Assembly (NCBI RefSeq): GCF_018350175.1
Contig: NC_058375.1
Span: 4,278,001 to 4,342,000, forward strand
Source: Felis catus
Lineage: Eukaryota
DNA: 64,000 nt
Reading direction: 5' to 3'
In this document: one piece after another, positions 3,101 through 53,448 of the stretch
Numbering within the stretch: position 1 is the stretch's first letter
Layout: each line of letters starts with the position of its first letter
Made by a program: the position numbers and the translations under genes
The notes under the pieces: generated by a model
What the model saw: the letters and a program-made list of their open reading frames with translations, nothing else
Database searches by the model: none
What the model was told of the DNA's origin: nothing

Positions 3101-3493
3101 GAATGGAAACACTAACAAACATTGGCTAAATATTTAACACAGAGAAATTCAAAAGAAGTTCTTTGCCAGCCAACACTTGCTAGACACCTAAACTGATGTC
3201 TAGAACTTTCTTGTCTGAACAGACACACAAGACTCAAGCAAGTCTCAAGATAACCTGAATGGGGTGAAGTCTAGGGGGATTCCAAGACGCAAATGCAAGC
3301 GGGGTGAGCCTCCCCTTCTGACCACTGTGAAGACTCACTGCTTCCACATGACCGTCTTGGGAGGTTCGGCCCAGCCTCTGTTTTCCGCCTAAGATACCAA
3401 AACACGCAGCTCAAAAGTAGAAATGCTAGAGCTGGGCTCCCCAGCACCACCTCCAGGATGAGGCAGAACGTTTTTTTTTTTTTTATGTTTATT

Positions 3494-3531
<38 letters not shown>

Positions 3532-6500
3532 CGAGCACAAGTGTGTGCAGGGGAGAGGCAAAGAGAGAGAGAGAGAGAATATCCCAAGCAGGCTCTGTAC
3601 TGTCAGTGCAGAGCCTGATGAAGGGCTCGAACTCATGAACCTTGAGATCATGACCTGAGTCGAAATCCAGAGTCACTTAAATGACTGAGCCACCCAGGCA
3701 CCCCCAGGAAGAACGTTCTTAACCAGCACGAAGCACAGTCATGCCCAACACAGGGCAGCAGCTAAGAGCGTGGACTCTCAAGCTAGAGCTTTCAACCTCC
3801 CATCTGTAAACTGAGGCAGTTACAGAAGCCACAGAACAGGGCTGTTCTGGGGTAAGAGGCCAGAAGAACGCCCACCTCACAGGAAGCCATACAAGTGTTG
3901 GCTAAGTAAGCAAAGACAATTCCTCGTACAAGTTCAGGTTACCTGATAGGGTGTCAGACCATGTAAAGGATAAAGTGGTTTTGGCACCGGGGGCTGCAGC
4001 TGGCCGAGGTAACCCAGTACCGCCAGATCACGAAGAACTTTGTTATGCGACTCTCTGAAAAGTAAATCAGAACGAAGTAGAGATTTAACCTTACACATCC
4101 ACCTCCCACTCAGCAACACAGTACATCGGTCATTACACAGATTATACATACACGAGCACACACTCCCACCTTGACATTGGCACACCCTGCCTTTCTGTAA
4201 ACCCACTGGAAAAACATGACGCCTAAAGACTCGCCTTTAAATAAAGGCTCTTGGCAACCAGAGCTGGAGGCCGCTTCTGGCTATGGGTCTTCCTCAACCT
4301 ATGATGTGGTTTCATCCTCATACACCCACCGGAAGCTGAAAATATGGAAGGATGAAAACGCCTTTAAGACACCTCGCACACTGGGGCGACTGAGGGGCTC
4401 AGTCAGTTGAGCATCTGACTTGGCTCAGGTCATGATCTCAGGATTCATGGGTCCAAGCTCTGCATCGGGCTCTGTACTGACAGGTCAGACCCCAGAGCCT
4501 GCTTCGGATTGTGTGTCTCCCTACCTTTCTGCCCCTCCCCTGCTTGTACTCTGTCTCTCTCAAAAATAAGTAAATAAACTTAAAAAAAAAAAATTAAAAA
4601 AACTTTTTTAAAATTTTTAAATGTTTATTTTTGAGAGAAGGAGAGACAGAGCACGAGTAGGGGAGGGTCAGAGAGAGAGGGAGACACAGAATCCGAAGCA
4701 GGTTCCAGGCTCCCAGCTGTCAGCACAGAGCCCGATGCGGGGCTTGAACCCACGAACCGTGAGATCATGACCTGAGCCGAAGTTGGACACTTAACCGACT
4801 GAGCCGCCCAGGCACCCCTAAAATTTTTTTTTGGAAATCAAACCATCTTAAATCAGGGACTGTCTGTATTTCCATTGGGAAAATAATGGCTCAGAAAATA
4901 GCCGATTCTCCTTCATAAACACGTAGCTGTGGCAGAGATTTGAACATTCGTAGAGAACTTCTTCCCTTTAAGGAAATGCGAGCAGAGAGGCTTGTTACAC
5001 CGGACAGAACTCCATCCTCCACCCACGGTGGCTGACTCACCTGTTTCTTGGCGTTTTTCTAAATGCAAAGTCTGACTGGACGCAAATCAGCTTATGTCCG
5101 GTGAACACGACGGGACTCTCCTTTTCTTCATCGGCAAATTCCAAACTCTCTGTGAACTCCGCCAGCTGGAAACCTCTGTTCCGGATTCTGGACTTGCTCT
5201 TTGTGTACAGGCCGTCCGTGTCGTCCACATAGTCAGGAGTGAGGTTTGGCATGTACTTACTCCGCCCGGAACTGAACTGGACCACGTGGCTGGGAGACAG
5301 CAGCCGGATGAGATCGATGAGAAGCAGAAGCCCCTTGTCTGTGAGGAAGGGGACACGAGCAGTTGGCACACTAAAACGCAAGGACACGTTTCTACGAGAA
5401 AACGGTACATCTGTCTGCGACACAGAAAGATCAGTAAGAACGATTTCCTGAGAACGGGGCTTCAGCGTTACTGCCCGAAGCCAAAAGCTTACTCGTACCG
5501 CCCACCCTCTGCCGCGAGATGCGCCTCCGCAGGCTTACCTGACACCCAGCCCATCGTGTTGACGATGAGAGGGGCCTCTCTCTTGTAGGAGCTGAACACG
5601 TACTGTATTATCTCAATATAATTCTCATAGTTGTTTTTACAAGAAGGTTTCCCATAATATACCATTTTCTGCGGTGTCCTCTGGTGAGTAAAAGGTGGTC
5701 CTAGGAAGATAAAGGTGAGAGTTTGCAGGACTATTTAAAAAGAGGCGAGGGCTCCGTGTCGGCCATTGCCAGTGACAAAGATTCGCAAGAAGTTCAAGAT
5801 TATCTATCCTACTACTGGGAATAGCTGTATCTCGTTTTCAGAATTCTAAGCTTTCAGGGCGTCTGGGGGGCTCAGTCATTAAGGTCATGATCTCAGGGTT
5901 AGTGAGTTCAAGTCCCACATCAGGTGAACGCGAGCCCCACTTCTCTTTCTCTCCCTCTCTGCCCCTCGCTCACTTGTGCCTTCTTTCTCTCAAAAAAAAA
6001 AAAAAAAAATCTTAGCTTTAAATTTAATAAAGACATCTTCATGTTCTTTTAATGTTTATTTTTGAGAGAGACAGAGACAGAGTGGAAGTGGGGGAGGGGC
6101 AGAGCGAGAGGGAGACACAGAATCCGAAGCAGGCTCCAGGCTCCCAGCTGTCAGCACAGAGCCCGACAGGGGCTTGAACTCACGAACTGTGAGATCATGA
6201 CCTGAGCTGAAGTTGGATACTTACCCAAAGGAGCCACCCAGGCACGCCCCCTCATTGTCACATATAATTAATCCCAATTCTTATTATGTGCTAATATGGC
6301 CATTCATTTACTGAGCACCGACAAGACACTGATGCTCAGTGAGCCAAGTCAGTATCTTTCTAGATACTCAGGATACACGTGTGAACAAAACCATGTCCCC
6401 ATCCTCGGACAAGTAAGCAGCAATCACTCACTAGCATGTAGCACTTCCTATGCCCCATGTATTTCACAAGTAGTCTCTAATTGTCATAAAAATCCTGAGG

Positions 6501-9500
6501 TAGGTAGTATTACTACACCCATTTTTATAGAGGAGGACACAGATTAACTGACCAAGATCATACAGCTAGTAGATACCAACTGCACTTGAACTCAGATGAT
6601 TCANNNNNNNNNNNNNNNNNNNNNNNNNNNNNNNNNNNNNNNNNNNNNNNNNNNNNNNNNNNNNNNNNNNNNNNNNNNNNNNNNNNNNNNNNNNNNNNNN
6701 NNNNNNNNNNNNNNNNNNNNNNNNNNNNNNNNNNNNNNNNNNNNNNNNNNNNNNNNNNNNNNNNNGGCAGAGATAGAAGACAGAGAAACCCAACAAGTCT
6801 CCGTGCTGTCAACACAGCCCCACACAGGGCTCGAACCTATGAACTGCGAGATCATGACCTGAGCTGAAATCAAGAGTTGGACGCTTGCTTAACCAACTGA
6901 GCCACCCAGGTGCCCCCAGAGCAAACATTCCTAACTGTAGCACCAGTCTGTCAAAACTGACCTACTTCCCTTATCTGGCTGGTGACCAGGACCACATGGC
7001 ACCACAGTCAGCAGGGTGAGGGCCTTGGTTAATGTGGTTGGTGCCAGGCCACCTGGGACAGGGCTGGCAAGGCTCCCCTCAAAGGTGGAGTAAGGGGACT
7101 TGGGGCAGCCCACAGCTGAGGAAGTGGCCTGCATAGCAGAGGGATTGAACAAATACAAAGAGACTGAGTAAATATGTAAATACACTGACAACAATCACAG
7201 CCAGAGTTCTTATCATCAGATATGGAACTTATAAATACGAGAGGAGGAAGGCTAACTAGAATAAACCCAGGGTGTCAGACCAGAATCAGAATGACTGCAG
7301 TAAACTTGTGGCTCTTAATAAATAGAAAATATGTACACAGAAGTGTAAACGTAGTGTATATGTATGTACGAATACGTACGCACGTAATATACACGTATGG
7401 GTTAAAACGTGCATGTATTTCCTAGCTGTGTCCACCGAGGGGATCTACAAGCAGTGACACCCCAGAAGAAGTAACAAATAATACACCTAGTTACAGACAG
7501 AGTGGAATACCCTGGCAAACACTTATCTTAACCACATGATCAGAGGCAACCTCTCTGGTGACAGGGCCAACTGACAGCTTGCTGACATGATGCACTGAGA
7601 ACACAGCACCACACCTCAATCAAGCCATGAGGGGCACTCGACAGGTACTCTTCCAAATTGCCAAGGTCATGAACGATAAGGAAAGCTGGAGGAACTGCTC
7701 CAGACCGAGGACTAAAGATCTGCAAATATACGCTGGGCTGGGGCAGGCAGCTGGATGATGGACGAGGGACAGCACTCCAGCAGTTCAGCTGCTCTGATTT
7801 GGTGGCTGCATTAGGATTATATAGCGGAGTGTCCTTGTTTGGGGAAACACCTACTGAAATATTAAGGGGTAAAAAAGAAAAGTAAATGCACTGGGGAAAA
7901 CATAAAAGAAACAAAGGAACAATGAAACCAGCTAAAGAGCAAAGTCCAAACAATTAGTTTTGATAAAACTGTAAAAGCAACGTGAATGCTCTACTTATTC
8001 TCATTGTCAAAAAGTCTGTTAAATCTAGAACATATCCAGCAACGTGATATATCATCTGCTTCTCTTAAAAGTCAACTAAACAGGGATGCCTGGCTGGCTC
8101 AGTCAATAGAGAGTGAAACTCTTGATCTCAGGATTACCAGTTCAAACCCCACATGGGGTACAGAGATTACTTTAAAACTCAAATCTTAAACCTGTTAAAA
8201 GTCAACTAAACAGGGGTGCCTGGGTGTCTCAGTCAGTTAAGCGTCTGACTTTTGATTTCAGCTCAGGTCATGATGTCAAAGTTCATGGGATCAAGCTCCA
8301 TGTTGGGCTCCATGCTTGGAGACTGCTTGGGATTCTCTCTCTCTCTGCCTCCTCCCTTGCTCATGTGCATGCTCTCTCTCTCTCTCTCAAAATAAATAAA
8401 CTTAAAAAAACATTTTTTAAATAAATAAATAAAATTTAAAAGTCAACCAAACAAAAATCACACAACTATCTTGACAGACACAGAAAAAGCACTTGACGAA
8501 AACCTAACGCCCTTTCACGACAACAAACATTCCACACGCTAGGAAAAGAAGGCAGCTTCTTCACCCTGAAGAAGGAACGCAACTGACAGTGAAAACCCAC
8601 AGCTGACAGCATGGACAGCATGGTGAAGCGCATTCCCTCTAAGATGAGGAATAAGAAATGTTTCCTCCTATTCAACACTGTACTGGAGGTCCTAGCCTTT
8701 TCTTAGACAGGAAAAAGGAATTGAAGGCATCCAAGCTGGAAGGAAGACGTAAAACTATTTCTATCCGCAGATGACGATCTTCTATCTAGAAAATCCAAAG
8801 AAATCCGTAGGAAACCTACTGGAGGTAATATGGGAATTCAGCAAAGTTGCAGGGTACGTGGTCAACACACAAAAATCACGTGTGTTTCAATATACCAGTA
8901 GTGAAGAATCTGGAAAGGAAATTAGGAAAGCAATTCCACTTACAGTATTTGCTAGAAGAATCCAATCCTTAGGAACAAATCTAACCAAGGAAGTGAAAGA
9001 CTTCTACACTGAAAATCACAAAATTTTGCTGAAAGAAATTAAAGAGCTAAAAATTGGAAAGGCACCCTGTGTTCATAAGAAGACTGATCATTGGGGCCTC
9101 TGGGTGGCTCAGTCAGTTAAGCGTCCGACTTCGGCTCAGGTCATAATCTCACAGTTTGTAGTTCTGAGCCCCGTGTTGGGCTTTGCACCGACAGCTCAGA
9201 GCCTGGAGCCTGCTTCGGATTCTGTGTCTCCCTTTCTCTCTGCCCCTTCCCCACTTATATTCTCTCCACCCCCTCCCCCCCCCCCAAATAAATGAATAAA
9301 TCTTTTAAAATCAGCAAAAAGAAAAAAAAATTATGCTTAGTGAAAAAAAACAGTCACCCAAGGACAGATATTGTTAAGGTCTTGCCTACAGGAGGGGCTT
9401 GGAGTAGGTGAACTCACAGGGACAGAAAGCAAAACAGAGGTCACCAGGAGCAGGAAGGAGGACAGGTGCTATTTAACAGGGACAGCATTTCAGTTTGGGA

Positions 9501-12500
9501 TGACGAAAAAATTCTGGATGTAGGTGGTGATGGCTACGGAACACTGTGAAAGTACTTAACGTCACTGAACTGTAAGCCTATCAGTGGTTAAAACAGTAAA
9601 TAGTATCACATTTTGTATGTTTTACCATTAAAAAAAAGCAACATGGGATTCTGGGTTGGATTCTGAACCATAAAAAGGATGTTAGTAGGACAACTGATGG
9701 ATTTTGATTAAAATCTGTAGTTAACAGTACTGTGTCAATGTAATTTCTAGGTTTAAATCATTATATATGGTTACATAAAGTGTAAATACTATAGGAAGGT
9801 ATGTTTCTGATTTACACACAACAAAGTGGGTATTAGTTCCATTTACCAAAATGGAACTCTAGAAAATTACCATAGTTTTGTTTTTTGGAAGCTAGGAGAA
9901 CTGTTATAAGAAGACCAGGAGTTTGGGTGGAAGGGGGAATATTCACTTTTACCCTTTTTTTTTTTCATATTTATACTTTTTATTTTTTTAGTTTTTTCTA
10001 TCATTATGTTTGAGTTTTATAAAACCAAGACATTTAAGAAATATACAACACACTTTCTCGCTAATATAAACAAACATTAAAAAAAGGGGGGGGAGGCTGG
10101 GTGGCTCAGTCGGTGAAGCATCCTACGTTAGCTCAGGTCATTATCTCATAGCTCGTGAGTTCAAGCCCTTTGTTGGGTTCGTGCCGACAGCTCAAAGCCT
10201 GGAGCCTATTTCAGATTCTGTGTCTCCCTCTCTCTCTGCCCCTCCCCTGTTTGTGTTCAGTCTCTCTCTCAAATACAAATAAACATTAAAAAAAAAAAAA
10301 AGAAAGAAACGTGTAATACATACCTAGAATTGGTTCTGTAATATTAAGTAAGGAAATGCAACCTGGAGGCGTAAATTCTGTCTGTCCCAGGTCACATTCC
10401 AAATAGTCAACACAGGAAATACTGAAAATTTGAAAGGAATAAAGAAAACCTTAGCTAGCTTTACTATGTCAAATGAATACATAAGATCTCATAGATTTTA
10501 TGCAACACACAGGCATAATCCACCCTTTTAGAGTCTTTTAGGTTGGATGCTCCAAACATGACAATCAACGAAAAGAAAATGTGCAGGCACAGTCACAGTA
10601 TCCACTCACAATATGGATACAACTTGGTACTACCTAAAATTTTACTTTCAAAATACAACAGAATTTCCCCCTACTCTGAACCTCTGGGTATGGACAAATA
10701 CAGAATCTAAGACAGGCAGCCCCTCTTGCCCCCTCGCTGATAAGCAAGGTCAGTCACTGTCTCGCTCCCAAACACAGCAGAACAGCGACGGTCATCGCTC
10801 AGCTGAGCGGCTTTGCACAGACTTGTAGACAATCTCTACTTAGACGTCAAGATGCGTTCCTGTCTAGTTTCTTAAGTCAAAAATCCTATTTCATGCCCCA
10901 AATCTAATAACGTGTCTAAACAAAAAAAAATTAAGAAAGAAACAAAAAATAAAAACAAAAAAAAAACCCCACTCTTACCTATTTAGCAACTGGTTAATCA
11001 GGTATCTATTAAATGTTGACTTTCCAACGTCCTGAGAGCCACAAACCAGAATGACAGGGCAGCCGTCTACTTCTTCTGGAGGCAAAAGAAACATTGACGC
11101 CTAGGATTAGCCACCTTCTTTAGGGCTCTAATCGCAAATCATAACCCTCTGAGGCTCTGGTGGACGAACACTCCGTTTATCCCTATGCGCCACTCACCAC
11201 AGGACACAGCGACTAGCTCTTCCATGGCAGACAGGGCACTCTCAGTTAAACGAAGGCCGTTCTTCTTCTTCTCTCTTTTGATGCCAACAGACCTCAGGGC
11301 TAAATGTTCAGAGTTAATCTGGAAGGTTGGGCTCTGAAATTAACAATGCAAGCTTTAAGAAAAGATGAACACAGTGCACATTTCTTCGTCTAGTTCTAGG
11401 CTAGTAAACCTCAAACAGTTGTGAGCTACAGAAGATAAACCTGGCCCCTCCTTTCTCTCACGCCCAAAGCCAACTCTTCCGTAATGCTCGTCAGCTGTCC
11501 CTGCAGTCACCCCTACCTGTCCTCCTAGCTCACACATACTTCCAGGCTGCCGTCACCTCTGCAGGAGGCCCTCCCAGGAAAGGAAAACCTGTGCAAATAT
11601 AAAAGTGATTGCCCCAAGAACAATTCAACAGAAGACCACAGCTGTCCAACAGGTTGGTGATTTAGAGTAACATCAAGGCGGTCTCCAAAAACATAAAGTA
11701 AAAAGACAAAGAACACGCACAGAGCTGAGAGCACGCGGAAGACAGGCCCGCTAACCCACTGGCGCTCCAGCGGAAGTAACAGGAAACCACGGAAGCAACC
11801 CACAGCATCAAGAGCAGACCCTTGCAGACGCAGGTGGGGTTCAGAGGGAATAAGGCCTCTGGGGTGAAGGTGAAGAAGATCAAGGAAGAGCTCCCCATGC
11901 ATGATCATATCCTCGTGCAATTCATCACCCCCAAGATAAAGACATCGTAGAAGGCACGAGAATCAGTCTGGTGTGTGACTTCCTATCAGCAACTCTGAAT
12001 TCTAGAGAACAATGGAGCAAGGCCTCCAAGGTTTTGAGGAAAAGACTCTATACTCTGCTCAACTATCAGTCACGGAGAGCAAAATAAGAGTAACTCCGGG
12101 GGAGAAAAAAAAAAGAACATCTTATGAGATCATATAAAGTTCACCATCTGCCGGATATGAAGAAATAAGGCTAGAATGTAGTAACACACACTGGGGGAGG
12201 AAAGTTACCCAAGAAAGAGCATGAGGAATATAAACGGTGGTGGTGAAGTCCCAGAAAAAAATAAATAAATAAAGTTAAAAATAAATGGAAAAAAAAAAAA
12301 TCAAGGCGTTTAGAATCTTCGCTTACAAGAAGCAAAGCTCGGTAACACGGGGCCTCCACCTCCTTCTCCACGGTCCTCACCAAGCTACTGGGTTCTGCAC
12401 TAGATTAAACTGATGCAACCACAACAGTGCATTCGCTGTCCTGCCCCCATTTCATACCTTCTGTCACTCAAACCTCCAACACCTACTTACTAGCTCTGCT

Positions 12501-15500
12501 CCCACTCAGTGATTGATCCTGATCTGCTTCCTGGAGCAAAACGAACCACTCAGAAGAGAACTTCTACTTGGCGCCCCCCCCCACACACCCCTGCAGCCCA
12601 TCCCGCCGTTTCCTCCTGCTACTCCTACTCTAGGTCAGCTGCCCGTGCTCCCAAGGCCACTGCCCCAGGCCTGCAGACACCAGAACCAGAAGCCTTCCTT
12701 CGGGACGCCTCACTTCGAGTGTCCTCACCTCTCTCTGCCGCATCCTCGGCACCCTCCCCGCTCTAGATCATTCCCACCTGCTGTGTCCAAACCTGTTGGG
12801 GCTTTTTCATCCATCTTAACAAAAAACAAAACTCTGACCACACTCCTCCAAATACTGTGTCATTTCTCTCCTTCCCCGTACCACTTAACTCTACAAAGGC
12901 AAAATCTCTTACTATTAAACCTGAGAGTTGCTCTCTGCCCGGGCTCCCGACCTTATTCCAATCAGTCTGCCCCACCTGCCCCAGCGGTCTACTGCGGGCA
13001 CGCTAGTCCAGACCACACGCCTGCACGCAAGCTCCCTTCTCAGGCCTCACCTACCATCAGCATCTGCCACAACTGCCCACGTCCAGCTCCTCTGAACACC
13101 TCCTGACCACACTCTGGTTTTTCTCTACCATCAGTGACCACTCTGTCTCAGCCTCTGCTGTTCCCTCATCCACACCTCTTCTGGTCTCAGGGCCTAAGGG
13201 CTCAGACTTCGAACCTCTCTGCCTCTCTGTATCCACTCCCTTGGTGTTATTATCCCATCTCACGGCCCAGAGACCATTCTGCTGAAAGCTCCCAACTCCA
13301 GAATCACACATGCAACTGGCCACTTGACATCTCCAATGGTCTAATAGGCACCTCAAAGCTAACATCTCAATCTGCAACCCCTACGCCAACCCCCCCACCC
13401 CCACCCCTACCCCCGGGTCAGTAACTCCACGCACCCGGGCGGTTAGGCTAACAAGCTTGAGCTTGATGTCATCCCTGATTCTTCCCCATGCCTCACATCC
13501 AGTCAGCCTGATAAAAATCCTGTAGGTTAGGCTCAATTTATGGCTCATGGGAAAGAATTATAGAAACAGAGCGTGACTGTTAAGAAATTAAGAACGTGAC
13601 CGGCAAAACTTTGGAGACGACAGAGAGATGACAGAAAGTATAAGTGCATCAACGTACATTCACAGAGAAAAATTTATTCACTGTCTCAAGTGAATGAATT
13701 AAGATAAAAAGATAACCATCCTGAGGTGCCTGGGGGGCTCAGTCGGTTAAGCTTCCAACTTCAGCTCAGGTCACGATCTCACGGTTCGTGAGTCTGAGCC
13801 CTACGTCGGGCTCTGTGCTGACAGCTCGGAGCCTGGACCCTGTTTCGGATTCTGTCTCTCTCTCTGTCTCTGCCACCCCTCCCCGCATGTGCTTTGTCTC
13901 CCTCTCTTTCTCTCTCTCTCTCCACCCCCTCAAAAATAATCATTTAAAAAGAAAAAAAAAAAGAAAACCATTTAAAAAATTCCAAAAGTCGGGGCACCTG
14001 GCTGGCTCAGTTGGTAAAGCATGCAACTCCTGACCCTCAGGTTCTGTGTTTGAGCCCCACGTTGAGAGGGAGGTTAAAACAAAACTTCGAAAAAATAAAT
14101 AACTCCAAAAGGCATTTAACCACTTACAATATGAAAAAAACGGCTTTCGCTAGGGAACAACACGGGGAAGGGGAGACATTTTTCATGACAGACCGTTCTA
14201 CACAAACCTTTTCACCATACACACGTATGACATTTTGTACAACCCGCAGCACAGCACAACAGCCACGCTGCTCTCTAAGCGAGCATCCTACAGTCATCTG
14301 ATAGGACTGTTCTGGTGAAACTAACGAGCACAACTCTGAATGAAAACTGGTCGTACCTCTTGTACAAAGACGTAAGATAAACCCGGGTGGCTGACTAAGA
14401 AGTTTACAGTGGAGGTTCTCAGCTGTTCCAACATCACAATGGAACACAGAGGAGAAAAATTCTTCATCAACCAGCATCTGTCATCTGCAAAAAGAAAAAT
14501 TAAGTACCTTAGAAATAGTAACTCCAGGGGTGCCTGGGGGGCTCAGCTGGTTAAGCGACTGGCTCTCGATTTCAGCTCAGGTCACGATCTCATGGTTCAG
14601 TTCATGGGATCGAGCCCTGAGTTGGACTCTGCGCTGACAGCACAGACCCTGCTTGGGATTCTGGCTCCTTCTCTCTGTGCCTTTCCCCTGTGCAAGCAGG
14701 CATGCACTCTCTCTCTCTCCCAAAAATAAACAAACATTAGGGAAAAAAAAAAAAAAAAAAGATGGGAATGCAAACTGGTGTAGCCACTCTGGAAAACAGT
14801 ATGGAGGTTCCTCAAAAAACTAAAAACAGGACTACTCAAGGGCCCAGCAACCGCACTACTAGGTATCTATCCAAGGGATACAGGTATGCTGTTTCGAAGG
14901 GGCACGTGCACCCCAATGTTTATAGCAGCACTATCAACAATAGCCAAAGAATGGAAAGAGCCCAAATGTCCATCGATGGATGAATGGATAAAGAAGACGT
15001 GGTATATTGGGGTGCCTGGTGGCTTTGTGGGTTAAGCGTTCGACTTTGACTCAGGCCATGGTCTCGCGGTTGGTGAGTTCAAACCCCGTATCATCAGGCT
15101 TTGTGCTGACAGCTCAGAGCCTGGAGCATGCTTCAGATTCTGTGTCTCCTCTTTCTGCCCCTCTACCACTCATGCTTGCACGTGCTCTCTCTCTCTCTCT
15201 CTCTCAAAAATAAATTTTAAAAAATTAAAAAAAAAAAGGAAGATGTGGTATATATATATACAATGGGATATTACTCGGCAGTCAAAAAGAATGAAATCTT
15301 GCCATTTGCAACTACGTGGATGGAACTGGAGGGTATTATGCTAAGCGAAATTAGTCGGTCAGAGAAAGACAAACATCATATGACTTTACTCATATGAAGG
15401 CTTTAAAATACAAAACAGATGAACGTAAGGGAAGGGAAGCAAAAAGGTATAAAAACAGGAAGGGATCAAAACATAAGAGACTCTTAAATATGGAGAACAA

Positions 15501-18500
15501 ACAGAGGGTTACTGGAGGGGTTGTGGGAGGGGGGATGGGCTAAATGGGTAAGGGGCATTAAGGAATCTACTCCTGAAATCACTGTTGCACTATATGCTAA
15601 CTAACTTGGATGAAAATTTTAAAAATAAATTAAAATAAATAAATAAAAATAATAAAATGAAAAGAAAAGAAAGAAAAGAAAAGGAGAGAAAGAAAGAAAA
15701 AGAAAAAGAAAAAATAGTAACTTTGTTAAATTCTACACTGTTTAGGACCACCTTCTCCTCAGCTGAATTGTCAACTTTTTGAGAGCAGTAATTATGTTAA
15801 GGGCCTTCTTCAAGAAACCATACTGCATAATAAGAACACACCTGGATGGAGAGAGAAGTCAATCCAGGATTGCTTTGGCCACACTCTAGCTGTGTGGCCT
15901 TGGGTAACTTTTCTCATCTGAAAAATGGTGAAAATAAGTTTCACTCACAGGACCCATGTGAAGGTTTAAATAGACACAGAAAAGTGTACAATATCTAGCA
16001 ATAGGAAGCATCTAAAAATATTAGCCTTGGGGGCACCTGGGTGTCGCAGTTGGTTAAGCGTTTAGGTCCAGGTCATGATCTCACAGTTTTGTGAGTTTGA
16101 GCCCCGTGCTGGGCTCTGGGCCAGCAATGTGGAGCCTGCTTGGGATTCTCTCTCTTTCCCTCTCTCTCTGCCCCCCCCCCCGACTTGTGCTGTCTCTCAA
16201 AATAAACAAAAGTAAAAACAAAAATACAAATATTACTGGGGGCGCATGGATGGCTCAGTCGGTTGGGAGTCTGATTTCAGCTCAGGTCATGATCTCACGC
16301 TTCATGGGTTTGAGCCCCGCGTCGGGCTCTGTGCTGACGACTCAGAGCCTGGAGCCTGCTTCCGATTCTGTGTCTCCCTCTCTCTCTCTGCCCCTCCCCC
16401 GCCTGCGCTCTGTCTCTCTCTCAAAAATAAACATTACAAAAAGATAAAAATAATAACACTAGCCTTATTATAGTATACCCTCAGTAAATTACCCATTTAT
16501 TTTCCTTACCCCGGTTAAGATGAGATCTGAGCAAAGCTCGGGCTTCCCTCTTCACCTCCTTCTTGCTTTTCTCAGGCACAGAATAATGAACTGCGTTGAT
16601 AGTGAGGCGAGAATGAGTGTAGGTAGAGAAGACATCTTGGGCAGGGTGGCCTTGGCTGATGGTATAACCCAACACCTGCACCTGGCCATAGAGGCACGTC
16701 ACACGGCAGATCCCGCTAAAAGTAAAACCCTACAAGGAAAGGGGGGTGGGCAAAAAAGAAGAAATAACATGACAAATCCTGTTACTAATGACTGCAAAAA
16801 ATTTTTTTAATTAATTAATTTTGAGAGAGAGCATACTCATAAGAGTATGAGCAGGGGAAGGGTACAGAGAGAGGGAGAGAGAATCCCAAGCAGGCTCTAC
16901 CCTGTCAGTGCTGAGCCCCACGCAGGGCTTGATCCCATGAACCGTGAGGTTATGACCTGAGCCTAAATCAAGAGTTGGACGCTGAACCGACTGAGCCATC
17001 CAGGTGTCCCCATGACTGAAATTTTCAAAACTTTTTTTTTATTTTTAACTAAACTCTATGCTGAACATGGGCCTCAAACTGATGACCCTGAGACCAAGAG
17101 TAGCATGCACCACCCACTGAGGAAGGCAACCCCTTCCTCTTAAAAAAAAAAAAAAAATGTGTTGGGGCACCTGGGTGGCTCAGTTGGTTAAGCATCAGAC
17201 TTCAGCTCAGGTCATGATCTCACGGTTTGTAAATGCAAGCCCCGCGTCGGGCTCTGTGCTGACAGCTCAGAGCCTGGAGCCTGTTTCGGATTTTGGGTCT
17301 CCCTCTCTCTGCCCCTTCCCTGCGCACGGGCTCTCTCTCTCAAAAATAAACATTAAAAAAAAAATTTGAAAAACATAAAAAATAAAAAATATGTCTAGAG
17401 GTGCCTGGGTGTCTCAGTTGGTTTCAGCCTCTGACTCTTGATTTTGGGTCAGGTCATGATCTCACAATTCGGGAGATCGAGCCCGGCATCAGGCTCTGTA
17501 CTTCGTGTAGAGTCTGCTTGGGTTGGGAGTCTCTCTCTTTCTACCTCTGCCCCTCTCCCCTGCTCATGCTCACTCACTCTCTCCAAAATACAATGAAATT
17601 CTAAACTCTTAGTTGCTATTCACATAACAAGTAACTTCTAAGTAACAACACGTTGTACTAGGTGGCCATCGGGTACTGATTATCCTTAACCTAATTTCAT
17701 ATCCCACCACAGCTACAGAGATGGCTGGTGTATACAGACACATGAAAAACAAGCGGGTCCCATGAACTGGGCTCTGCAGCTGTCACAGACCTATCTCTAC
17801 CAAGGCCCACTGCCTGCCAAGTTTCTCCGGTTCCTGGGTTTTCACATCCCCCGGCACTGCAGGAAGACCTCCCACACCAGCATCCAAGTGAAGAGCCCAG
17901 GTCCTGAAATTAAGCTGCCTCGGTTTGAGTCTTAGCTCTGCCCCTATTCTACGCCTTTCAGCAAGTTACCCAAACTATACCTCAGTTTCTTCGTCCGTAA
18001 ACATTTACGGAAATGAAGGTAATGACTCCATAGAGCTGAGAGTATTAAAAGGGTTCATAAACCTAAAACACTTAGAACGTAGAGCCCGGCATCTCTAAGC
18101 ACCCCGTAAACGTGAGCTGGTCCTGTTATTTCCTGCTATTAGATTCCCTTCGGCTCTCAAAGCCTAGAGCTCCACAACAGGTCCCTAGTCACCCCCTGCT
18201 CAGCACCGCCGCCAGGAGGAACGCTCTCGACCCGGGGCCGCAGAGCCCGCACGGTCTTCTCCCAGCCCGCGAGTCCCGGAGCTGCTCCCCATTCCCCCCC
18301 CCCCGCCCCCCCTCCCCCGATCTCGGCCGGCCAGCCTCCCCCCACCGGCGCGACCCACCTGGTCCCGCGGCAGCAGCAGCAAGGCGCGGCCCGGGCCGGC
18401 CGGCCGCACCGGCGGGATGGGGAGGGTCGTGGGGCAACTCGGGGCGGGGGTCGCGGCCGGGGCCGGGCTGGGGGCCGCGGTCTTGGGCCTCCGGGCGGCC

Positions 18501-18715
18501 GAGCGCGACACCAGGCAGCCGCTCTCCCGCCAGTCCGCGCCGGCCGCCTGGGCTTGTAGCAGCCGCCGCCGCAGGCGCCTCCGGCCGCACCAGCGCAGGG
18601 TCCCGAGCCGGCGGCGGGGCCGGCGGCTGAGGACGAGCTGGGGCCGAGCCTTGCGGGCCCGCAGCCACGTGGAGCGGGAAGGACCCCGCTTGAGAAGCAA
18701 CTGGGCATCCGCCAT
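36..18715 (-). CDS. NOL9: Polynucleotide 5'-hydroxyl-kinase NOL9 (Clp1/Grc3 family, pre-rRNA ITS2 processing); 12 coding exons, 689 aa
   Basis: complement(join(36..185,868..1001,2508..2685,3943..4054,5041..5338,5539..5700,10324..10421,10979..11075,11198..11333,14357..14484,16510..16729,18359..18715)) = 2070 nt. All junctions GT-AG with matching phases; Arg-rich N-terminus, Walker [16 protein letters not shown] and NTMGW motifs. Confidence 0.96.
868..1001 (-). CDS. NOL9: NOL9 exon 11
   Basis: ttcaag|[20 protein letters not shown]...VFKSQ|gtgagc. Confidence 0.95.
1099..1322 (+). mobile_element. Can-SINE (SINEC_Fc-like)
   Basis: tRNA-derived head GGGTGGCTCAATCGGTTAAG, CT-rich body, A tail. Confidence 0.9.
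2080..2340 (-). mobile_element. Ancient LINE2 fragment
   Basis: Resembles L2 consensus in antisense (agatgccagtgagatacccaagtgaaga); degenerate. Confidence 0.45.
2508..2685 (-). CDS. NOL9: NOL9 exon 10
   Basis: ttccag|[32 protein letters not shown]...CLGF|gtgagt. Confidence 0.95.
2786..3050 (+). mobile_element. Can-SINE with (GAAAA)n-expanded tail
   Basis: TSD agttaYgttggcca on both sides; (GAAAA)n about 2969-3032. Confidence 0.9.
3471..3704 (-). mobile_element. Can-SINE with (GA)n
   Basis: Reverse-strand head ...gagccacccaggcacccc. Confidence 0.9.
3943..4054 (-). CDS. NOL9: NOL9 exon 9
   Basis: tttcag|[16 protein letters not shown]...LTPYQ|gtaacc. Confidence 0.94.
4383..4602 (+). mobile_element. 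Can-SINE
   Basis: Head, body, A tail; abuts an antisense SINE. Confidence 0.9.
4604..4818 (-). mobile_element. Can-SINE (tail-to-tail with previous)
   Basis: Reverse-strand full-length copy. Confidence 0.9.
5041..5338 (-). CDS. NOL9: NOL9 exon 8
   Basis: tcacag|[21 protein letters not shown]...RKTPRN|gtgagt. Confidence 0.94.
5539..5700 (-). CDS. NOL9: NOL9 exon 7
   Basis: tcctag|[20 protein letters not shown]...[11 protein letters not shown]|gtaagc. Confidence 0.95.
5857..6008 (+). mobile_element. Can-SINE (internally shortened)
   Basis: Head, CT-rich body, A tail; imperfect TSD ending agcttt. Confidence 0.8.
6047..6251 (-). mobile_element. Can-SINE
   Basis: Reverse-strand full-length copy. 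Confidence 0.9.
6604..6765. other. Assembly gap (162 N)
   Basis: Run of N. Confidence 1.
6766..6916 (-). mobile_element. Can-SINE, tail hidden in gap
   Basis: Reverse-strand head and body. Confidence 0.85.
7140..7880 (+). mobile_element. Old L1 3' region (L1MD-like)
   Basis: tatttcctagctgtgtccaccgagggg...agcagtgacacccca and catgatgcactgagaa resemble L1MD 3'UTR. Confidence 0.55.
8083..8435 (+). mobile_element. Two tandem Can-SINEs (short 8083-8194; full 8213-8435)
   Basis: Bounded and separated by three copies of ttaaaagtcaacYaaaca. Confidence 0.88.
8460..9630 (+). mobile_element. Degenerate old L1 (ORF2 reverse-transcriptase remnant plus 3' end), interrupted by Can-SINE 9093-9330
   Basis: YLENPK...[12 protein letters not shown]...[23 protein letters not shown] is L1 ORF2-like; frameshifted. 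Confidence 0.8.
10086..10310 (+). mobile_element. Can-SINE
   Basis: Head, body, A tail ending about 13 nt from the NOL9 exon 6 donor. Confidence 0.9.
10324..10421 (-). CDS. NOL9: NOL9 exon 6
   Basis: tttcag|[32 protein letters not shown]|gtatgt. Confidence 0.95.
10979..11075 (-). CDS. NOL9: NOL9 exon 5 (P-loop)
   Basis: ctccag|[31 protein letters not shown]|gtaaga. Confidence 0.95.
11198..11333 (-). CDS. NOL9: NOL9 exon 4
   Basis: tttcag|[18 protein letters not shown]...ELVAVSC|gtgagt. Confidence 0.92.
11700..12200 (+). mobile_element. Ancient L1/HAL1 ORF1 relic
   Basis: gacttcctatcagcaactctgaattctagagaacaatggagcaaggcctccaaggttttgaggaaaa resembles the L1-type ORF1 C-terminal region; many disablements. 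Confidence 0.5.
12440..13540 (+). mobile_element. LINE2 fragment
   Basis: C-rich; cacttgacatctcca...taataggcacctcaaagctaacatctc is typical of the L2 3' half. Confidence 0.65.
13723..14102 (+). mobile_element. Can-SINE (13723-13965) plus short SINE (13991-14102)
   Basis: Two tRNA-derived heads with A tails. Confidence 0.85.
14357..14484 (-). CDS. NOL9: NOL9 exon 3
   Basis: ttgcag|[21 protein letters not shown]...VFVQE|gtacga. Confidence 0.92.
14527..14760 (+). mobile_element. Can-SINE joined directly to downstream L1
   Basis: Head at 14527; A tail runs into L1 sequence. Confidence 0.88.
14761..15713 (+). mobile_element. 5'-truncated carnivore-type L1 3' end with A/(GAAAA) tail; contains nested Can-SINE 15008-15237
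   Basis: gggaatgcaaactggtgtagccactctggaaaacagtatggaggttcctcaaaaaac (ORF2 end) and L1 3'UTR; nested SINE TSD gaagaYgtggtatat. Confidence 0.9.
16029..16452 (+). mobile_element. Two tandem Can-SINEs (16029-16230; 16238-16452)
   Basis: Two heads and tails; outer tagcctt duplication. Confidence 0.88.
16510..16729 (-). CDS. NOL9: NOL9 exon 2
   Basis: ttgtag|[19 protein letters not shown]...SHLNR|gtaagg. Confidence 0.94.
16801..17600. mobile_element. Cluster of four SINEs: 16801-17011 (-), 17032-17134 (-, short), 17164-17390 (+), 17397-17600 (+)
   Basis: Recognisable heads and tails in both orientations. Confidence 0.85.
17880..18130 (+). mobile_element. MIR
   Basis: gcaagttacccaaactatacctcagtttcttcgtccgtaaa resembles the MIR core. 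Confidence 0.6.
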
Positions 18716-18950
18716 GTTGGCCACGGGCGCCTGCCGCGCGAGAATCTCCCGAGATCCGGTCGCTCCGCCCCTCGGCCCGTCGTGCGGCGGAAAGTAGAGG
18801 CCGGGGGCGGGGGGTGGGGGGCGCCCTCTGCCGGCCGCCCGCGGCAGCGCACGTTGGCTCCCGCAGGCCCCCCGGAGGCTCCTGCCGGCCTGGAGCGGCA
18901 GGGGCGGCAGCCTAGGTCACACCCCGTGGGGCCGTCCCACCGAGGGCCCT
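18150..18950. promoter_or_regulatory. CpG island / NOL9 promoter, head-to-head with TAS1R1
   Basis: Very GC- and CpG-rich; covers NOL9 exon 1; YY1-type CCGCCATGTT over the start codon (18709-18718); CTCF core at 18821-18834. Confidence 0.85.
18359..18715 (-). CDS. NOL9: NOL9 coding exon 1
   Basis: ccaacATGg start; [11 protein letters not shown]...LLLLPRDQ; donor CAG|GTGGGT. Confidence 0.93.
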
Positions 18951-19334
18951 ATTTACATTATGCAAAAGCCCCACCCCGGCCAGATACCCCACTCGGAGTC
19001 CAAGGCCACATCTCCGGAAATCCACTTGGAATTGTTTTTTTTTTCTGGCAGAAAAAGAGCCAGGATTGGCAGTTTAAACAAAACCAGTCTATTTGCATAC
19101 CGTGTTTGCATGCAGTTGTCTTTGGGCTGAAGGGGGACACCCTGGAAAAGAAGGCGAACCCAGGATGATTCACCCAAAATTTCAGTGTCAGAAAACTGAG
19201 GACTGGGAGGAGGTCAACTTAAAGTCAGTCTCATTTGGTAAACTGAGGCCCAGGTAAAAAGTTCTAAAACCCACAGCTCCCTCCATATTCTGTCCCCCAG
19301 AGAAGCAGTGTCCCTGCCTTCCTCTGACCCCTGC

Positions 19335-19513
19335 CCCTCAAGACGCCTGGGCTCCCTTTCTGAGCCGGGTGAAGCCGCAGGCACCAGAGCGAGAACAGAA
19401 CCCACAACCATCCAGAGGGAGGGGCAGCGGCCACCACCTGGCTTGCACCTGTGCCTTCACCCTGCCCAGTTCCTGAGTAGGACCGCAGGCCCGGAAGGCC
19501 AAGGCAAACAGCC
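19335..19513 (+). repeat. 179-bp direct repeat, copy 1 (TAS1R1 proximal promoter)
   Basis: Matches 20422-20600 at 175/179 positions. Confidence 0.95.
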
Positions 19514-19593
19514 TGGTTCCTACGACTGGGTTCCAGCCCCACCCCTGGCACAGGCGTGAAGTTGGGAAGCATCTGGGCAGCCGCTGTCTATTC

Positions 19594-19601
19594 TATTTAA
19601 A
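19594..19601 (+). promoter_or_regulatory. TAS1R1 TATA-like box
   Basis: TATTTAAA beginning 68 nt upstream of the TAS1R1 ATG. Confidence 0.6.
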
Positions 19602-19661
19602 CAGCCGAGCTGGTCAGAGGGTGCTGGCTGGCCATGCCAGGCACAGGACGGACTGGCCAGC

Positions 19662-19852
19662 ATGTCACTCCCGGCGGCTCACCTGGTCGGCCTGCAGCTC
19701 TCCCTCTCCTGCTGCTGGGCTCTCAGCTGCCACAGCACAGAGACGTCTGCCGACTTCAGCCTCCCTGGGGATTACCTCCTCGCAGGTCTGTTCCCTCTGC
19801 ACTCTGACTGTCCGGGCGTGAGGCACCGGCCCACGGTGACCCTCTGTGACAG
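19662..19852 (+). CDS. TAS1R1: TAS1R1 exon 1
   Basis: [23 protein letters not shown]...[12 protein letters not shown]...TLCDR; donor AG|gtgagt. Confidence 0.96.
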
Positions 19853-22800
19853 GTGAGTGAGGGGTCCCGTGCCTCTAGGACCTCTGCCCATCCTCTGTCC
19901 TCCTCAGTGAGGATCTTGCCCTTTCTGCCTCCCGAGCCACCTCCCATCCCTCCCCATCCTATGGTCACCACCTTCAAGCCTTGGCTGGACCTTCCCTGGC
20001 ACTTCTGCCCAGGTTCTGCTTTGTAATACGTGATTTTGTCCTGGCTGTTCGAGTGCTTTGTATTATAATCCCATTCCGGTCATTTCCGGGCTTTGGGACG
20101 TAAATAGGCAGTTAGGTTTTCCCCTGCTTTCGTGTCCTCCCCACTCCTCTCCAGGTTCAAACTCCTGTGTCTCCCCGATGGCAAGTGAGGAGGAGAGGGA
20201 AGGCACTGGGAGCATATGCTTTGGGAACCTAGCAAAGATACCTGAGATTGGTGCCTTGCCTTTGGGAAGTTGACAGCCTAATAGAGAAAAATATGTTTCC
20301 CTCCTAAAAGAAGATAGTTATTTGCCATCTGTGCAAGTCACAGGCTTGGGAGGCTCGAGGACGCATTGGGACTCGGTGGCAGGATGCCTTAAACATGGCG
20401 CACATCTGACAGTCACCTCTACCCTCAAGACGCCTGGGCTCCCTTTCTGAGCCAGGTGAAGCCGCAGGCACCAGAGCGAGAGCAGAAGCCACAACCATCC
20501 AGAGGGAGGGGCAGCGGCCGCCACCTGGCTTGCACCTGTGCCTTCACCCTGCCCAGTTCCTGAGTAGGACCGCAGGCCCGGAAGGCCAAGGCAAACAGCC
20601 AGGGTTCGAGGAAGAAGGTTCTGGAGAGTCTGGCGCATGAGGACTGGCCCAAAGAGCCACAGATAGGAGCCCAGGTAGAGGAGACTTGGGGAAGAGGAGA
20701 CACATGGATGTCCGCTTCTGAAGGTGTCACCGTGGGAGGCAATGAGCACCCTCTGAGGGACTCATGGACACAAGTGATAGAAATGATAGAAGACCCTTCT
20801 AACAAGCAGAAGGGCTGGAAAGTGAAACGTGCTAGCACACTCTTCAAGCAGAGCTGAACCGTGTTCCTGTTGGGATCCAGTCAGCAGCTCCCGAGAGGCA
20901 CTGAGGAACACAGGCCCTCACCACGTTCACAAGTGTCCTGATGAGAGGGATACTAGGTAAACGAGGTTCGACAGGTGTGTGGTTAATTTTATACATCAAC
21001 CTGGCTAGGGTACGGTGCCCAGTTGTTTGGCCAAACACCAGTCTAGATGGGGCTGTGAAGGTTAACATTTAAACCAACAGGGTGAGTAAAGCAGATCGCT
21101 TTCCATTGTGTGGGTGGGCCTCATCCAATCAGTTGAAGACCTTAAAAGAAAAGATTGAGGTCCCCCCAAAAAGGAAGAAATTCTGCCTTCGAACTCAACA
21201 CTGCAGCTTTGACCACTGAGAGCATTTCCAGCCTGCCCTGCAAACGCCAGACTCACCAGCCCCACAATCATGTGAACCAATTCCTTAAAATAAACTTCTC
21301 TTTCTCTCTCTCTATCCAACTGGTTCTGTTTCTCTGCAGAACCCTGACTCACGCAGCAGGTTTCCCTGCTACAGGACTTCATCAGCCTTTCAACCCTAAT
21401 ATGCTCATCCAGGGAGGAATGGTTTGTGGTTTCTCCAAGTTGTAACCGCCCCTCCCCCCCCGCCCCCGCCCCCCCAAAGGCCTGTTAACACAGCTGAGTG
21501 TATGGTACAGGGCCCACAGTGAGGTCATGGTGGTAGGGGACGGGACAGATGCCCTCAGAGTTTCCTTTCTACCCTTCCCCCCACCCCCGACGCCAAGAGG
21601 GTCTCGGCAAGGCCTTGCTCCTCTGAGCTCTCAGCTGGGCTTTCTCTACAGGCCCGACAGCTTCAACGGTCACGGCTACCACCTCTTCCAGGCCATGCGG
21701 TTTGGCATCGAGGAGATAAACAACTCCACGGCCCTCCTGCCGAACGTCACCCTGGGATACCAGCTGTACGACGTGTGCTCGGAGTCTGCCAACGTGTATG
21801 CCACACTAAACGTGCTCTCCCTGCTGGGGACACATCACGTAGAGATCCGAGCAGACCCTTCCCACTATTCGCCTGCCGCCCTGGCTGTCATTGGGCCTGA
21901 CACCACCAACCACGCAGCCACCACTGCAGCCCTGCTGAGCCCCTTCCTGGTGCCCCTGGTGAGCTGGAGCCCGGGGGCCTGTCCATCTCCCCTGCCGGCA
22001 GGTCCAGTGTGGGCTGAGGGGGTGGGGGGGTGGGCAAGAGCTGCCATGCCCACTCTGAGTCTCCTGGGTGGTCACATTGCAGGGGGCCCTGCCCCCTTCA
22101 CAGTCCCCGCCCCAGCATCCCTTCCTCCCCAAGTGCTGCATCCAGACCTCCCTGCCTCAATGTCCTGAGAAAAACCGTCTCCTTTGAAACTGCTGCCCTT
22201 TGCTCTGCCCCCTCCATTCCATCTCCTCTGTGAAGAACGGAACACCCTTTGTTTCCCACCTCACACACTGGTCCACTTCTCCCCGCCCTCCTCCTTCCGG
22301 TCTTCCTTCCCTCCCTCCCAGCTCAGGCTCAGAGGTGTGGTCCCCCTCCCCCTCCAATGCTGTCCTCCTGGGCCTCACCCTCTCCTCTGCTCGTAGGCCT
22401 GTCCTAGGCTTCCTCCTCCGCCTATAAGCTGGCTTTACCCCTCTCTGTCTTCCAGGCACCTGTGGTCTTAGCGCTGCCCTCTCTCTGAACCTCGTTCCGT
22501 GGAAACTCTCTTCTTGTTTGCTTCTCCCTCTCATCACTTGCTTCCCGGGCCCCTGCCCTGACTGCTGCACCACCACTCCTGCTCTTGTGATCTCCAGGGC
22601 TTTCTAGATCTCCAGGTCCAGCAAATGCTTTTCAGCCCTTCTTTGCTTGACATGACGACTTTGTGACAAATTTGACCAGTCCTTCAGTGACGCTCTTGCC
22701 TCGGCATTTATGACCTGCCACCTCCCTCTCACTTGTGGTACCTCCTTCTCCTCCTCCTCCTTCTCAGTCTTCTTTGGAGAATCTCCTCCCCCCCTCTTCT

Positions 22801-25800
22801 GAAAAAGTGGATGATTCCCCGAGTGCAGGACCGCTCCCTTTCCCAGGCAGGTGCTGGGAGCAAACAACTTTCCCTACTCTTCAAGATTCTTCTGGCTGGT
22901 CTAAAGATTAAGTTGATGTGACACAGATGAACAGGAGAAAGTCAAAATCACGTATGTACAGGGAATCTACATAAACACGAGAGGTTCAAAGACAGGCAAA
23001 GTGAGGTTTATCTGCTATCCTGAACTATGGAGAAGTGGGTAGGGGTCAGACTTCAAAGGAAAGGAAGACAATTCATAGGAGAAGAGAGAGTGAATGTGTA
23101 TTACACAATGTTTGCTGGGCCATCCAGAAACATTGGGACATGGAGAGGAATTTTAACAAATCGGACTTTGCTAGGTTTCCCCCCACCCCCACCCCTGCTT
23201 ACCTCGCCTAGTTCCTATTGTAATGTAATTCTCTATGGTGAAGCTCCTGAACCTGGGGCAGCTTAGCTCTCTAAATTCTTTTGGGCAGTTAGGGGAAAGG
23301 ACAAAGTTTCCCCCTGGGTCTTTTGCGCCTTAATGATTTTCAACTGGAAATTAACCCACACGCCAAGGTGGCAGAACCTCTCCACAGGCCGTGGCCCCAC
23401 GGCTCCATCGCCCGTTCCCTAGCTTCTGTCCTGAGTTCTAAGCACTGAGCCTCATTTCTGGCTGCTCTTCCGGGGTCTCCACTTCATGCATCCAGCGGAC
23501 CCCCCAGCTGAACCTACCTCCCTATACAACTCAAGCCTCTCTGCTTCCTGCCCACTTGCCTTAAGAGTGACCACCTCCACTCAAGCCAGGAACCCGGTGG
23601 GCCACCTACATCCCTCCTTCCCCCACCCCCACAGTTAGCCCACCACCACGGTCTCTGCTTTTACCTTCTATGAGCTGCCGGGCCCATCCCTCTTCCCCGT
23701 CACCGCTGCCACGGCTCAAACTCAGGCTGCCAAGCTGTCTCTTCGGGATGACTCCAGCAGTCTCCTAGGGAGTTCTTCCTGACTCTGGTCTTGAGCCTTT
23801 TCTAACACATTCTTCACTGAAATCAGATACACCCCTGAAACACAAGTCTGGGCAGATTACCTCTCTGCCTAGACATTTAAGGGGCTCCCCAGGGCCTGCA
23901 GATAAAGACCAAGTATCTTAGCTATCTTGGTGCCAGGAGTAAGGCCTCCTGCCCTGACCAGACACGCCTACTTTTGTGCTCCTTCTTCCGGCTTCCAACC
24001 TCCTGGGTCAGTTCTCTCACTGGGTGTAGCTTTTGTTCTCTTCCCCTTCTTCTCCCACAAACCTCCCCCTGGGTTTCTGCCTCTTCTTTAGATGTAGCTG
24101 GTCGGCCTCCTAGTCCACCAGAGCTGTCCTTGAGAGCCAGGGCTGGGACCATGTCTCCCTCCTCCTCGGGTCCCCGCGCCCAGCACAGGGCCAGCACTTG
24201 GAGGCTCTGAGTTGAGGCCAAGGCCACTGAAGTCGCTGAACTGAACCCCCCCCCCGGCCCCCCTCCGCAGATCAGCTACGAGGCCAGCAGCGTGACGCTC
24301 GGAGTGAAGCGGCATTACCCCTCGTTTCTGCGCACCATCCCCAGCGACAAGCACCAGGTGGAGGCCATGGTGCTGCTGCTGCAGAGCTTCGGGTGGGTCT
24401 GGATCTCGGTGGTCGGCAGCGACGGCGACTACGGGCAGCTGGGGGTGCAGGCGCTGGAGGAGCAGGCCACCCAGCAGGGCATCTGCGTTGCCTTCAAGGA
24501 CATCATCCCCTTCTCTGCCCGGCCGGGCGACGAGAGGATGCAGGGCATCATGCACCACCTGGCCCGAGCGAGGACCACCGTTGTGGTCGTTTTCTCCAGC
24601 AGGCAGCTGGCCAGGGTGTTCTTTGAGTCGGTGGTGCTGGCCAACCTGACTGCCAAGGTGTGGATCGCCTCAGAAGACTGGGCCATCTCTAGACACATCA
24701 GCAATGTGCCCGGGATCCAGGGCATTGGCACAGTGCTGGGTGTGGCCATCCAGCAGAGGCTTGTCCCTGGCCTGAAGGAGTTTGAAGAGGCCTATGTCCA
24801 GGCAGATAAGGGGGCCCCTGGGCCTTGCTCCAGGACCTCCGAGTGCAGCAGCAACCAGCTCTGTAGAGAGTGTCGGGCTTTCACGGCAGAGCAGATGCCC
24901 ACGCTCGGGGCATTCTCCATGAGCTCTGCTTATAACGCCTACCGGGCAGTCTACGCAGTGGCCCATGGCCTCCACCAGCTCCTGGGCTGTGCCTCTGGAG
25001 CCTGTTCCAGGGACCGAGTCTACCCCTGGCAGGTAAGGTAGCCCAGACCCCGGCACCCTGAAACGGGGTGCTTTCCTAAGGCAAACAGAGTGATCCCTCT
25101 CTGGCCAACTGAGTGCCGGGGGTGGGGGACAAAGGCCACCCATCAGAAGGCTAATTCCTTCTCTTGGGCTTCACTTCTCTGACCTCGGCCCCTCCCACCA
25201 CCATGCTCCAGACCCAGGGCTAAAAATCTCTGGGAAACGGGCCTTTTTAGAAGCTTCCTCTCACTCAGGAGGCCAGTTGGGAGGGTCGAGGGGCTTCCTT
25301 GGAAGGGAGGGGGCTCTGAATTTCCAGACAGACTGAAACCACCCAAATAGAAGCATTTGCTTCCTAAGCCTTCCGGGTCTGGGAGAGTTGAGGAGGAGCA
25401 GCCTGCGTCATCTGTGGCTGCTCCATGATCCCCGTTTATCTCAGCTTCTGGAGCAGATCCGCAAGGTGAATTTCCTCCTACACAAGGACACCGTGAGGTT
25501 TAATGACAACGGGGACCCTCTCAGTGGCTACGACATAATTGCCTGGGACTGGAGTGGCCCCAAGTGGAACTTCAGGGTCATTGGCTCCTCCATGTGGCCT
25601 CCAGTTCAGCTGGACATAAATAAAACCAAAATCCGGTGGCACGGGAAGGACAACCAGGTAATGGAGCCATGGTCACTCACCAAGTCACCGCCTTACGGGC
25701 AGCCTGGAGCCTGAAGTCACTGTCGACACAGCTCACACGGAGCAGGAGGGGGCCCCGGGTGCCAGGCCAACGTGGCTCTATCCAGCCCTGCCAGGGAAGC

Positions 25801-52123: not shown

Positions 52124-52754
52124 GGGGGGGGGCACCTGGGTGGTTCAGTTGGTTAATAGACTCTGTTTTGGCTCAGGTCATGATCCCAAGGTTGTGGGAT
52201 GGAGCCCCGTGTTGGGCTCCACGCTGAGTGTGGAAACTGCTTAACAATCTCTTTCTGCCCCTCTCCCCTGCTGGCTGTCTTGAAATTAAATTTTTTTAAT
52301 GTTTATTTATTTATTATTATTTTTAACGTTTATTTATTTTTGAGACAAAGAGAGATAGAGCATGAATGGGGGAGGGTCAGAGAGAGAGGGAGACACAGAA
52401 TCCGAAGCAGGCTCCAGGCTCTGAGCTGTCAGCACAGAGCCCGACGTGGGGCTCGAACCCACAAACTGCGAGATCATGACCTGAGCTGAAGTCGGATACT
52501 TGGCCGACTGAGCCACCCAGGCGCCCAATGTTTATTTATTATCGAGAGACAGAGAGAGACAGAGCATGAGCATGGGAGGTGCAGAGAGAGGAGACACAGA
52601 ATCCGAAGCAGGCTCCAGGCTCTGAGCTGTCAGTACAGAGCCCAACGTGGGGCTCGAATTCAAACTGGGAGACCATGACCTGAGCCAAAGTCAGATGCTT
52701 AACCGACTGAGCCACCCAGGGGCCCCTCTCTCGAAATTAATAATAAAAAAAAAA
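52124..52754. mobile_element. Three nested Can-SINEs
   Basis: Outer (+) TSD agttcaagatggg; middle (-) TSD gaaattaa; inner (-) TSD aatgtttatttatt. Confidence 0.85.
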
Positions 52755-53415: not shown

Positions 53416-53448
53416 TTTATTTTTATTATTAGTTTTTTAATGTTTATT

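Follow-up and report, generated by a model that had tools for sequence, protein, structure and literature searches.

A 179-bp segment of the cat TAS1R1 promoter recurs in the first intron of the gene, in the same orientation. By analogy with a described class, we consider this direct repeat to be probably a repair-mediated proximal duplication (RD), with a copy that is likely to be without function, neutrality being assumed from the class. The elements concerned are given below in coordinates of the window, that is, the whole 64-kb stretch of DNA that was analysed.

18400–18715, reverse strand: first part of the neighbouring gene, head-to-head with TAS1R1; its open frame begins at the ATG at 18715 and lies in a CpG island ending at about 18900
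19335–19513, forward strand: copy 1 (presumed donor) of the 179-bp unit, spanning −327 to −149 relative to the TAS1R1 ATG
19662–19852, forward strand: TAS1R1 coding exon 1, flanked by the two copies; 64 of its 64 residues agree with those of Felis catus TAS1R1
19853–21651, forward strand: TAS1R1 intron 1, containing copy 2; GT...AG, 1,799 bp
20422–20600, forward strand: copy 2, at the presumed acceptor site inside TAS1R1 intron 1, spanning +761 to +939 relative to the ATG

Copy 1 thus sits between the starts of TAS1R1 and of its neighbour, which we take to be NOL9 from the gene order NOL9–TAS1R1–ZBTB48–KLHL21. Both alignment and a script confirmed what a sequence-only reading of this DNA had described: two copies of 179 bp each on the same strand, separated by four substitutions (19367/20454, 19395/20482, 19401/20488 and 19433/20520) and no indels. 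Its offsets of −327 and −149 from the ATG at 19662 and its motif positions (E-boxes at 19435 and 19446, CCGGAAG at 19491 and a CAGGTG at 20453 found in copy 2 only) were likewise all correct. The blastn E value of the pair is about 1e-85. The copies start 1,087 bp apart, with a gap of 908 bp between them, and the perfect tracts that they share measure 32, 27, 5, 31 and 80 bp. Of the four substitutions, two are in form CpG transitions, one in each copy; this type of change is the commonest neutral mutation. Comparing the window with itself (pairs of at least 30 bp and at least 88% identity) yielded five pairs, and the two copies form the only one longer than 43 bp. Neither a third significant match to the unit in the 64-kb window nor a tandem array at the unit was found. 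Exact target-site duplications of 4–21 bp within six bases of the junctions were searched for and not found, and inspection revealed no poly(A) at either end of the unit, so that the earlier statement on both points is upheld. We found no description of a duplication around TAS1R1 exon 1 in the literature on TAS1R1/T1R1 in the cat and other felids, a search whose coverage left out most subscription papers and patents.

The sequence-only reading had proposed a recent templated insertion. Templated insertion is the best reading and corresponds to a described class (PMC2671141), whereas its recency is doubtful, given a divergence between the copies of 2.2% against 2.7% between cat and leopard cat. 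In the account of RDs by Pace, Sen, Batzer and Feschotte (2009), these are inserts of at least 50 bp whose donor lies more than 50 bp but no more than 5 kb away; proximal RDs have a mean size of 162 bp, a median of 147 bp and a maximum of 619 bp, their spacing shows an apparent peak near 1,200 bp, which the authors warn may be an artefact of the method, and poly(A/T) tails were present in none of the 39 proximal RDs inspected (PMC2671141). The TAS1R1 unit resembles them in its length, which falls within the range of 50 to about 620 bp, in its 908-bp gap, with the donor within 5 kb and no tandem arrangement, in its sharp ends, in lacking poly(A/T) and the target-site duplication that would be a sign of retrotransposition, and in having copied predicted factor sites. 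It differs in several respects: the RDs of Pace et al. lie inside annotated transposons, whose interruption identifies donor and acceptor, and were checked against empty sites, whereas the TAS1R1 case is known from the cat sequence alone; the cat is absent from the genomes that they used; and the TAS1R1 copies bracket a first coding exon.

Under the RD reading, a DNA break would have occurred in TAS1R1 intron 1 at about 20421, and the broken end would have invaded nearby promoter DNA about 1.1 kb upstream, on the same or the sister chromatid. Through synthesis-dependent strand annealing, or an equivalent switch-and-return during replication, 179 bases would have been copied and the end then rejoined to intron 1. 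We infer that copying ran from promoter to intron, in a single event in the cat lineage, probably several million years ago, with the copies drifting apart since. All the proximal RDs inspected by Pace et al. are reported to have microhomology of 2–9 nt, a deletion of 1–15 nt or filler (PMC2671141). At the two TAS1R1 junctions, the resemblance between flanks is equalled by 49% and 18% of 1,500 random intron positions, and the longest shared words, 6-mers, are equalled at 20% and 4.7% of control positions; the weak microhomology previously noted at both edges is therefore no better than chance. True microhomology would be counted inside the apparent unit, and junction marks can be read only with an empty site. 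Searches for an orthologous TAS1R1 locus found none in metagenome contigs (exon-1 peptide and degenerate exon-1 pattern), viral contigs (exon-1 peptide), prokaryote contigs (exon-2 peptide) or plasmids (blastn).

RDs have been linked to the 'doublets' of Thomas et al. 2004 (PMC2671141). Like doublets, the TAS1R1 repeat is a short local duplication. Doublets reportedly lie on the same strand about 1 kb apart, arise by insertion and consist of exact matches of 25–100 bp, unlike the TAS1R1 unit, which is 179 bp long with an exact core of 80 bp. At 179 bp, the unit is also too short for a segmental duplication, defined as exceeding 1 kb at more than 90% identity (PMC2671141). The published RD counts, made only inside transposons, are 824 in human and 192 in dog, the latter corresponding to 0.22 per Mb of transposon DNA (PMC2671141). 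Extrapolating the dog density gives about one RD per 71 windows of 64 kb, or about 530 per genome, for a genome size of 2.4 Gb. As it stands, the TAS1R1 repeat thus adds one case to a class of which a mammalian genome is expected to hold several hundred, and its only notable point is its position around the first exon of a much-studied gene. There is also a practical warning, as primers and short reads placed in the promoter segment from −327 to −149 will also match TAS1R1 intron 1.

It is very improbable that the repeat is a false duplication created by the assembly, or a piece of some dispersed repeat. Two alleles would not be expected to differ at four of 179 positions (P=0.0005–0.013 at an assumed heterozygosity of 0.2–0.5%), each copy has its own unique flanks, and the nearest N gaps (6604–6765 and 48941–49112) lie about 12 and 28 kb away. 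A dispersed repeat is further opposed by the lack of a third copy within 64 kb. Moreover, a false copy in Felis_catus_9.0 should appear as a common 179-bp deletion, and the variants recorded for 54 cats include none in the introns of TAS1R1: the structural-variant gene table of that study (PMC7581003, supplementary file 15) gives, for both TAS1R1 transcripts, zero exon, intron, start-lost and 5′ UTR variants and four upstream variants. The table consists of filtered short-read calls, with a stated rule of more than two individuals, mapped to Felis_catus_9.0, which may not be the assembly of the window. The four upstream variants could bear on copy 1.

The divergence between the copies (4/179, or 2.2%; 95% CI 0.6–5.7%) corresponds to an age of 5 million years (1.4–13) at the rate of Pace et al. 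and of 11 million years (3–29) at an assumed slower rate of 1e-9 per year. The genomes of cat and leopard cat are given as 97.3% identical, a non-identity of 2.7% (PMC8006817), which predicts 4.8 differences in 179 bp; four were observed. These values suggest millions of years and not a very recent event and, the divergence being near that between cat and leopard cat, the duplication may well predate the genus Felis, so that 'recent' is not established. The duplication is, in addition, a ready marker for dating within Felidae.

The sequence-only reading had offered, as another history, an older duplication whose copies were kept alike by gene conversion, which we consider scarcely probable. 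Close same-strand repeats can convert, and short nearby repeats are described as recombining in the alpha-globin locus (PMC2583991). However, a divergence of 2.2% matches that seen at the felid level and needs no conversion. The flanks show no decayed shoulders either, as residual homology is absent in 60, 150 and 300 bp of flank (10–94% of 657 control positions score equally), and the differences are unclustered, an 80-bp clean tract arising in 46% of random placements of four differences. The idea of conversion thus finds no support in these data.

Other routes to the same layout are a 1,087-bp tandem duplication trimmed by deletion, or reverse copying from intron to promoter, in which case part of the cat TAS1R1 promoter would be new. 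Either would yield the observed arrangement, and GC content favours copy 1 as native only weakly (0.60/0.62 in the 60-bp flanks of copy 1 and 0.55/0.58 in those of copy 2, against 0.65 in the unit). We nevertheless regard these routes as decidedly unlikely. The tandem route requires two events, and the flanks of copy 2 (20200–20421 and 20601–20900) look like the two halves of one old inverted LINE-2 3′ part, split by copy 2, a likeness that would make copy 2 the insert, with little lost. Searches did not confirm this likeness: the empty site reconstructed in silico had no significant match in the rest of the window (nhmmer and blastn; best blastn E 0.27), the copy 2 flanks all scored below the gathering scores of Rfam, and their six reading frames gave nothing beyond one chance match against Pfam. 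The right flank of copy 2 is purine-rich (0.71 over 100 bp). Further along intron 1, the stretch at about 20985–21345 resembles an old MLT2-type solo LTR. Elsewhere in the window, related interspersed repeats with A-rich tails form a dense cluster (1000–17500, 45200–45700 and 52100–53700) and make up most repeat families; we take them to be carnivore SINEs.

The candidate elements in and around the duplicated promoter segment are as follows.

19435–19451, forward strand: two CACCTG E-boxes in the unit, copied to 20522 and 20533
19491–19497, forward strand: CCGGAAG ETS-like core in the unit, also in copy 2
19539–19544, forward strand: GT box CCACCC at −123, outside the unit; a candidate by analogy, the same motif being a Klf5 site in the mouse Tas1r1 promoter
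19594–19601, forward strand: TATA-like box at −68, not part of the unit; nothing similar stands at the corresponding offset after copy 2
20453–20458, forward strand: CAGGTG, a third E-box confined to copy 2; the change that creates it has the CpG-transition form

The unit therefore holds E-boxes at −227 and −216 and the CCGGAAG core at −171. Three elements downstream of it were not copied: the CCACCC box (−123), a further E-box (−92) and the TATA-like box (−68). Dinucleotide shuffles would give 0.27 CACCTG boxes where the unit has two (P=0.025; this was one of four motif tests), and two or more occur in 3.8% of 157 neighbouring 179-bp tiles. For the ETS-like core, the shuffles gave P=0.036, and CCGGAA is present in 9.6% of the same number of tiles. 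The CACCTG pair, modestly above chance, speaks for a regulatory donor and not for use of copy 2. In the mouse Tas1r1 promoter, as summarized in a review, Klf5 binds the CCACCC GT box and MyoD/Tcf12 bind E-box 1 of three (PMC9104119). The region upstream of the cat ATG is similar: its last 230 bp include a CCACCC box together with three E-boxes. The duplicated unit, however, includes only two of the three E-boxes and no GT box.

The sequence-only reading had also suggested that copy 2 might act as an alternative promoter. We consider this unlikely, since the unit contains none of the GT box, the −92 E-box and the TATA-like box. A duplicated promoter would hold core promoter elements or the start site; the core elements identified here are not in the 179-bp unit. 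No TATA-like motif was found behind copy 2 (20600–20986), and copy 2 lies outside the CpG island, with an observed/expected ratio of 0.32–0.38. An alternative first exon was considered and rejected: the 770-aa isoforms of TAS1R1 that were examined keep exon 1 and lack exon 4, and therefore do not point to an intronic promoter.

A different possibility is that the unit has the same origin, but that copy 2 now serves as an intronic shadow enhancer (E-box and ETS), raising or broadening the transcription of TAS1R1 or NOL9 in cats. We consider this unlikely. Copy 2 keeps both CACCTG boxes and the CCGGAAG core intact, all three within the last 80 bp of the unit, which carry no difference, and it has gained a third E-box. 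The mouse gene is described as driven by MyoD/Tcf12 via an E-box and by Klf5 (PMC9104119), and cat Tas1r1 is expressed in fungiform papillae (PMC10468298). We count the intact CACCTG pair, together with the action of MyoD/Tcf12 on the mouse E-box, against the assumed neutrality of the copy. On the other hand, chance placement of four differences can be expected to leave a clean tract of 80 bp (P=0.46 wherever it lies and 0.09 at this end), the Klf5-type GT box was left uncopied, the gained E-box has an ordinary CpG-transition form and the surroundings of copy 2 are not those of a CpG island. As for the class, predicted factor sites were copied from 22 of 824 RD donors, RDs mostly diverge at the neutral rate, and duplicated factor sites, duplicated promoters and ectopic recombination have already been named among RD outcomes (PMC2671141). 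Umami has been proposed as the main appetitive taste of the cat (PMC10468298). In a fuller version, to which we give an equally low probability, a repair-born E-box/ETS shadow enhancer would tune up the umami receptor in a lineage whose sweet receptor was lost, and the repeats would occasionally yield exon-1 null alleles. Activity of copy 2 would mean that a scar of DNA repair had turned into a regulatory element at a gene related to diet, and cases of this kind have rarely been traced.

Null or copy-number alleles produced by recombination between the copies had also been suggested. They are geometrically possible, as a crossover would delete or double 1,087 bp, including the GT box, the TATA-like box and exon 1, but the longest perfect tract is 80 bp and no such allele is listed in 54 cats. 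The TAS1R1 copies resemble the low-copy repeats that undergo non-allelic homologous recombination (NAHR) in being directly oriented and flanking an exon; unlike efficient NAHR substrates, they share an uninterrupted identity of just 80 bp. The lengths of identity needed are given as 134–232 bp in tests on mouse cells and 300–500 bp as estimated for human meiosis, with exceptions below 50 bp noted for close repeats (Gu, Zhang and Lupski 2008, PMC2583991). The longest tract at TAS1R1 thus falls short of the roughly 130–500 bp associated with efficient NAHR. The structural-variant table of the 54 cats lists no deletion or duplication of exon 1 (PMC7581003). Among 562 sequenced cats, Tas1r1 matched the reference with one synonymous variant (PMC10468298). 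For the 15 cats of which that study gives details, exons were amplified by PCR with flanking primers; a heterozygous deletion would escape detection in this way, and the result is therefore weak evidence against a null allele.

The host gene itself is intact. A match to the 770-aa Felis catus protein covers five exons with no substitutions inside exons, exon 4 being absent from that isoform, and each of the ten other felid TAS1R1 proteins compared has several residue differences from the gene in the window, which therefore comes from the domestic cat or a very near relative. The start codons of TAS1R1 and its neighbour are only 947 bp apart (18715–19662), and the CpG island lies on the side of the neighbour, with observed/expected ratios of 0.8–0.97 at 18000–18800 and of about 0.3 from 19000 on. 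A 23-bp match of 87% links the neighbour start (18690–18712) with the proximal TAS1R1 promoter (19562–19584; E 0.068) and is probably due to chance. Annotations of the 770-aa isoform exist for six felids, two canids, warthog and gorilla; in the 'isoform X2' proteins of this length that we examined, three by reading and the felid ones by mapping, exon 1 is kept and the 71 residues of exon 4 (25442–25660) are absent, so that skipping of exon 4 would be conserved and in-frame if the gene models are right. A protein model from jaguarundi begins 24 residues earlier (19590–19661), overlapping the TATA-like box, with a Met where the cat has ATT; this upstream start is probably a gene-model artefact.
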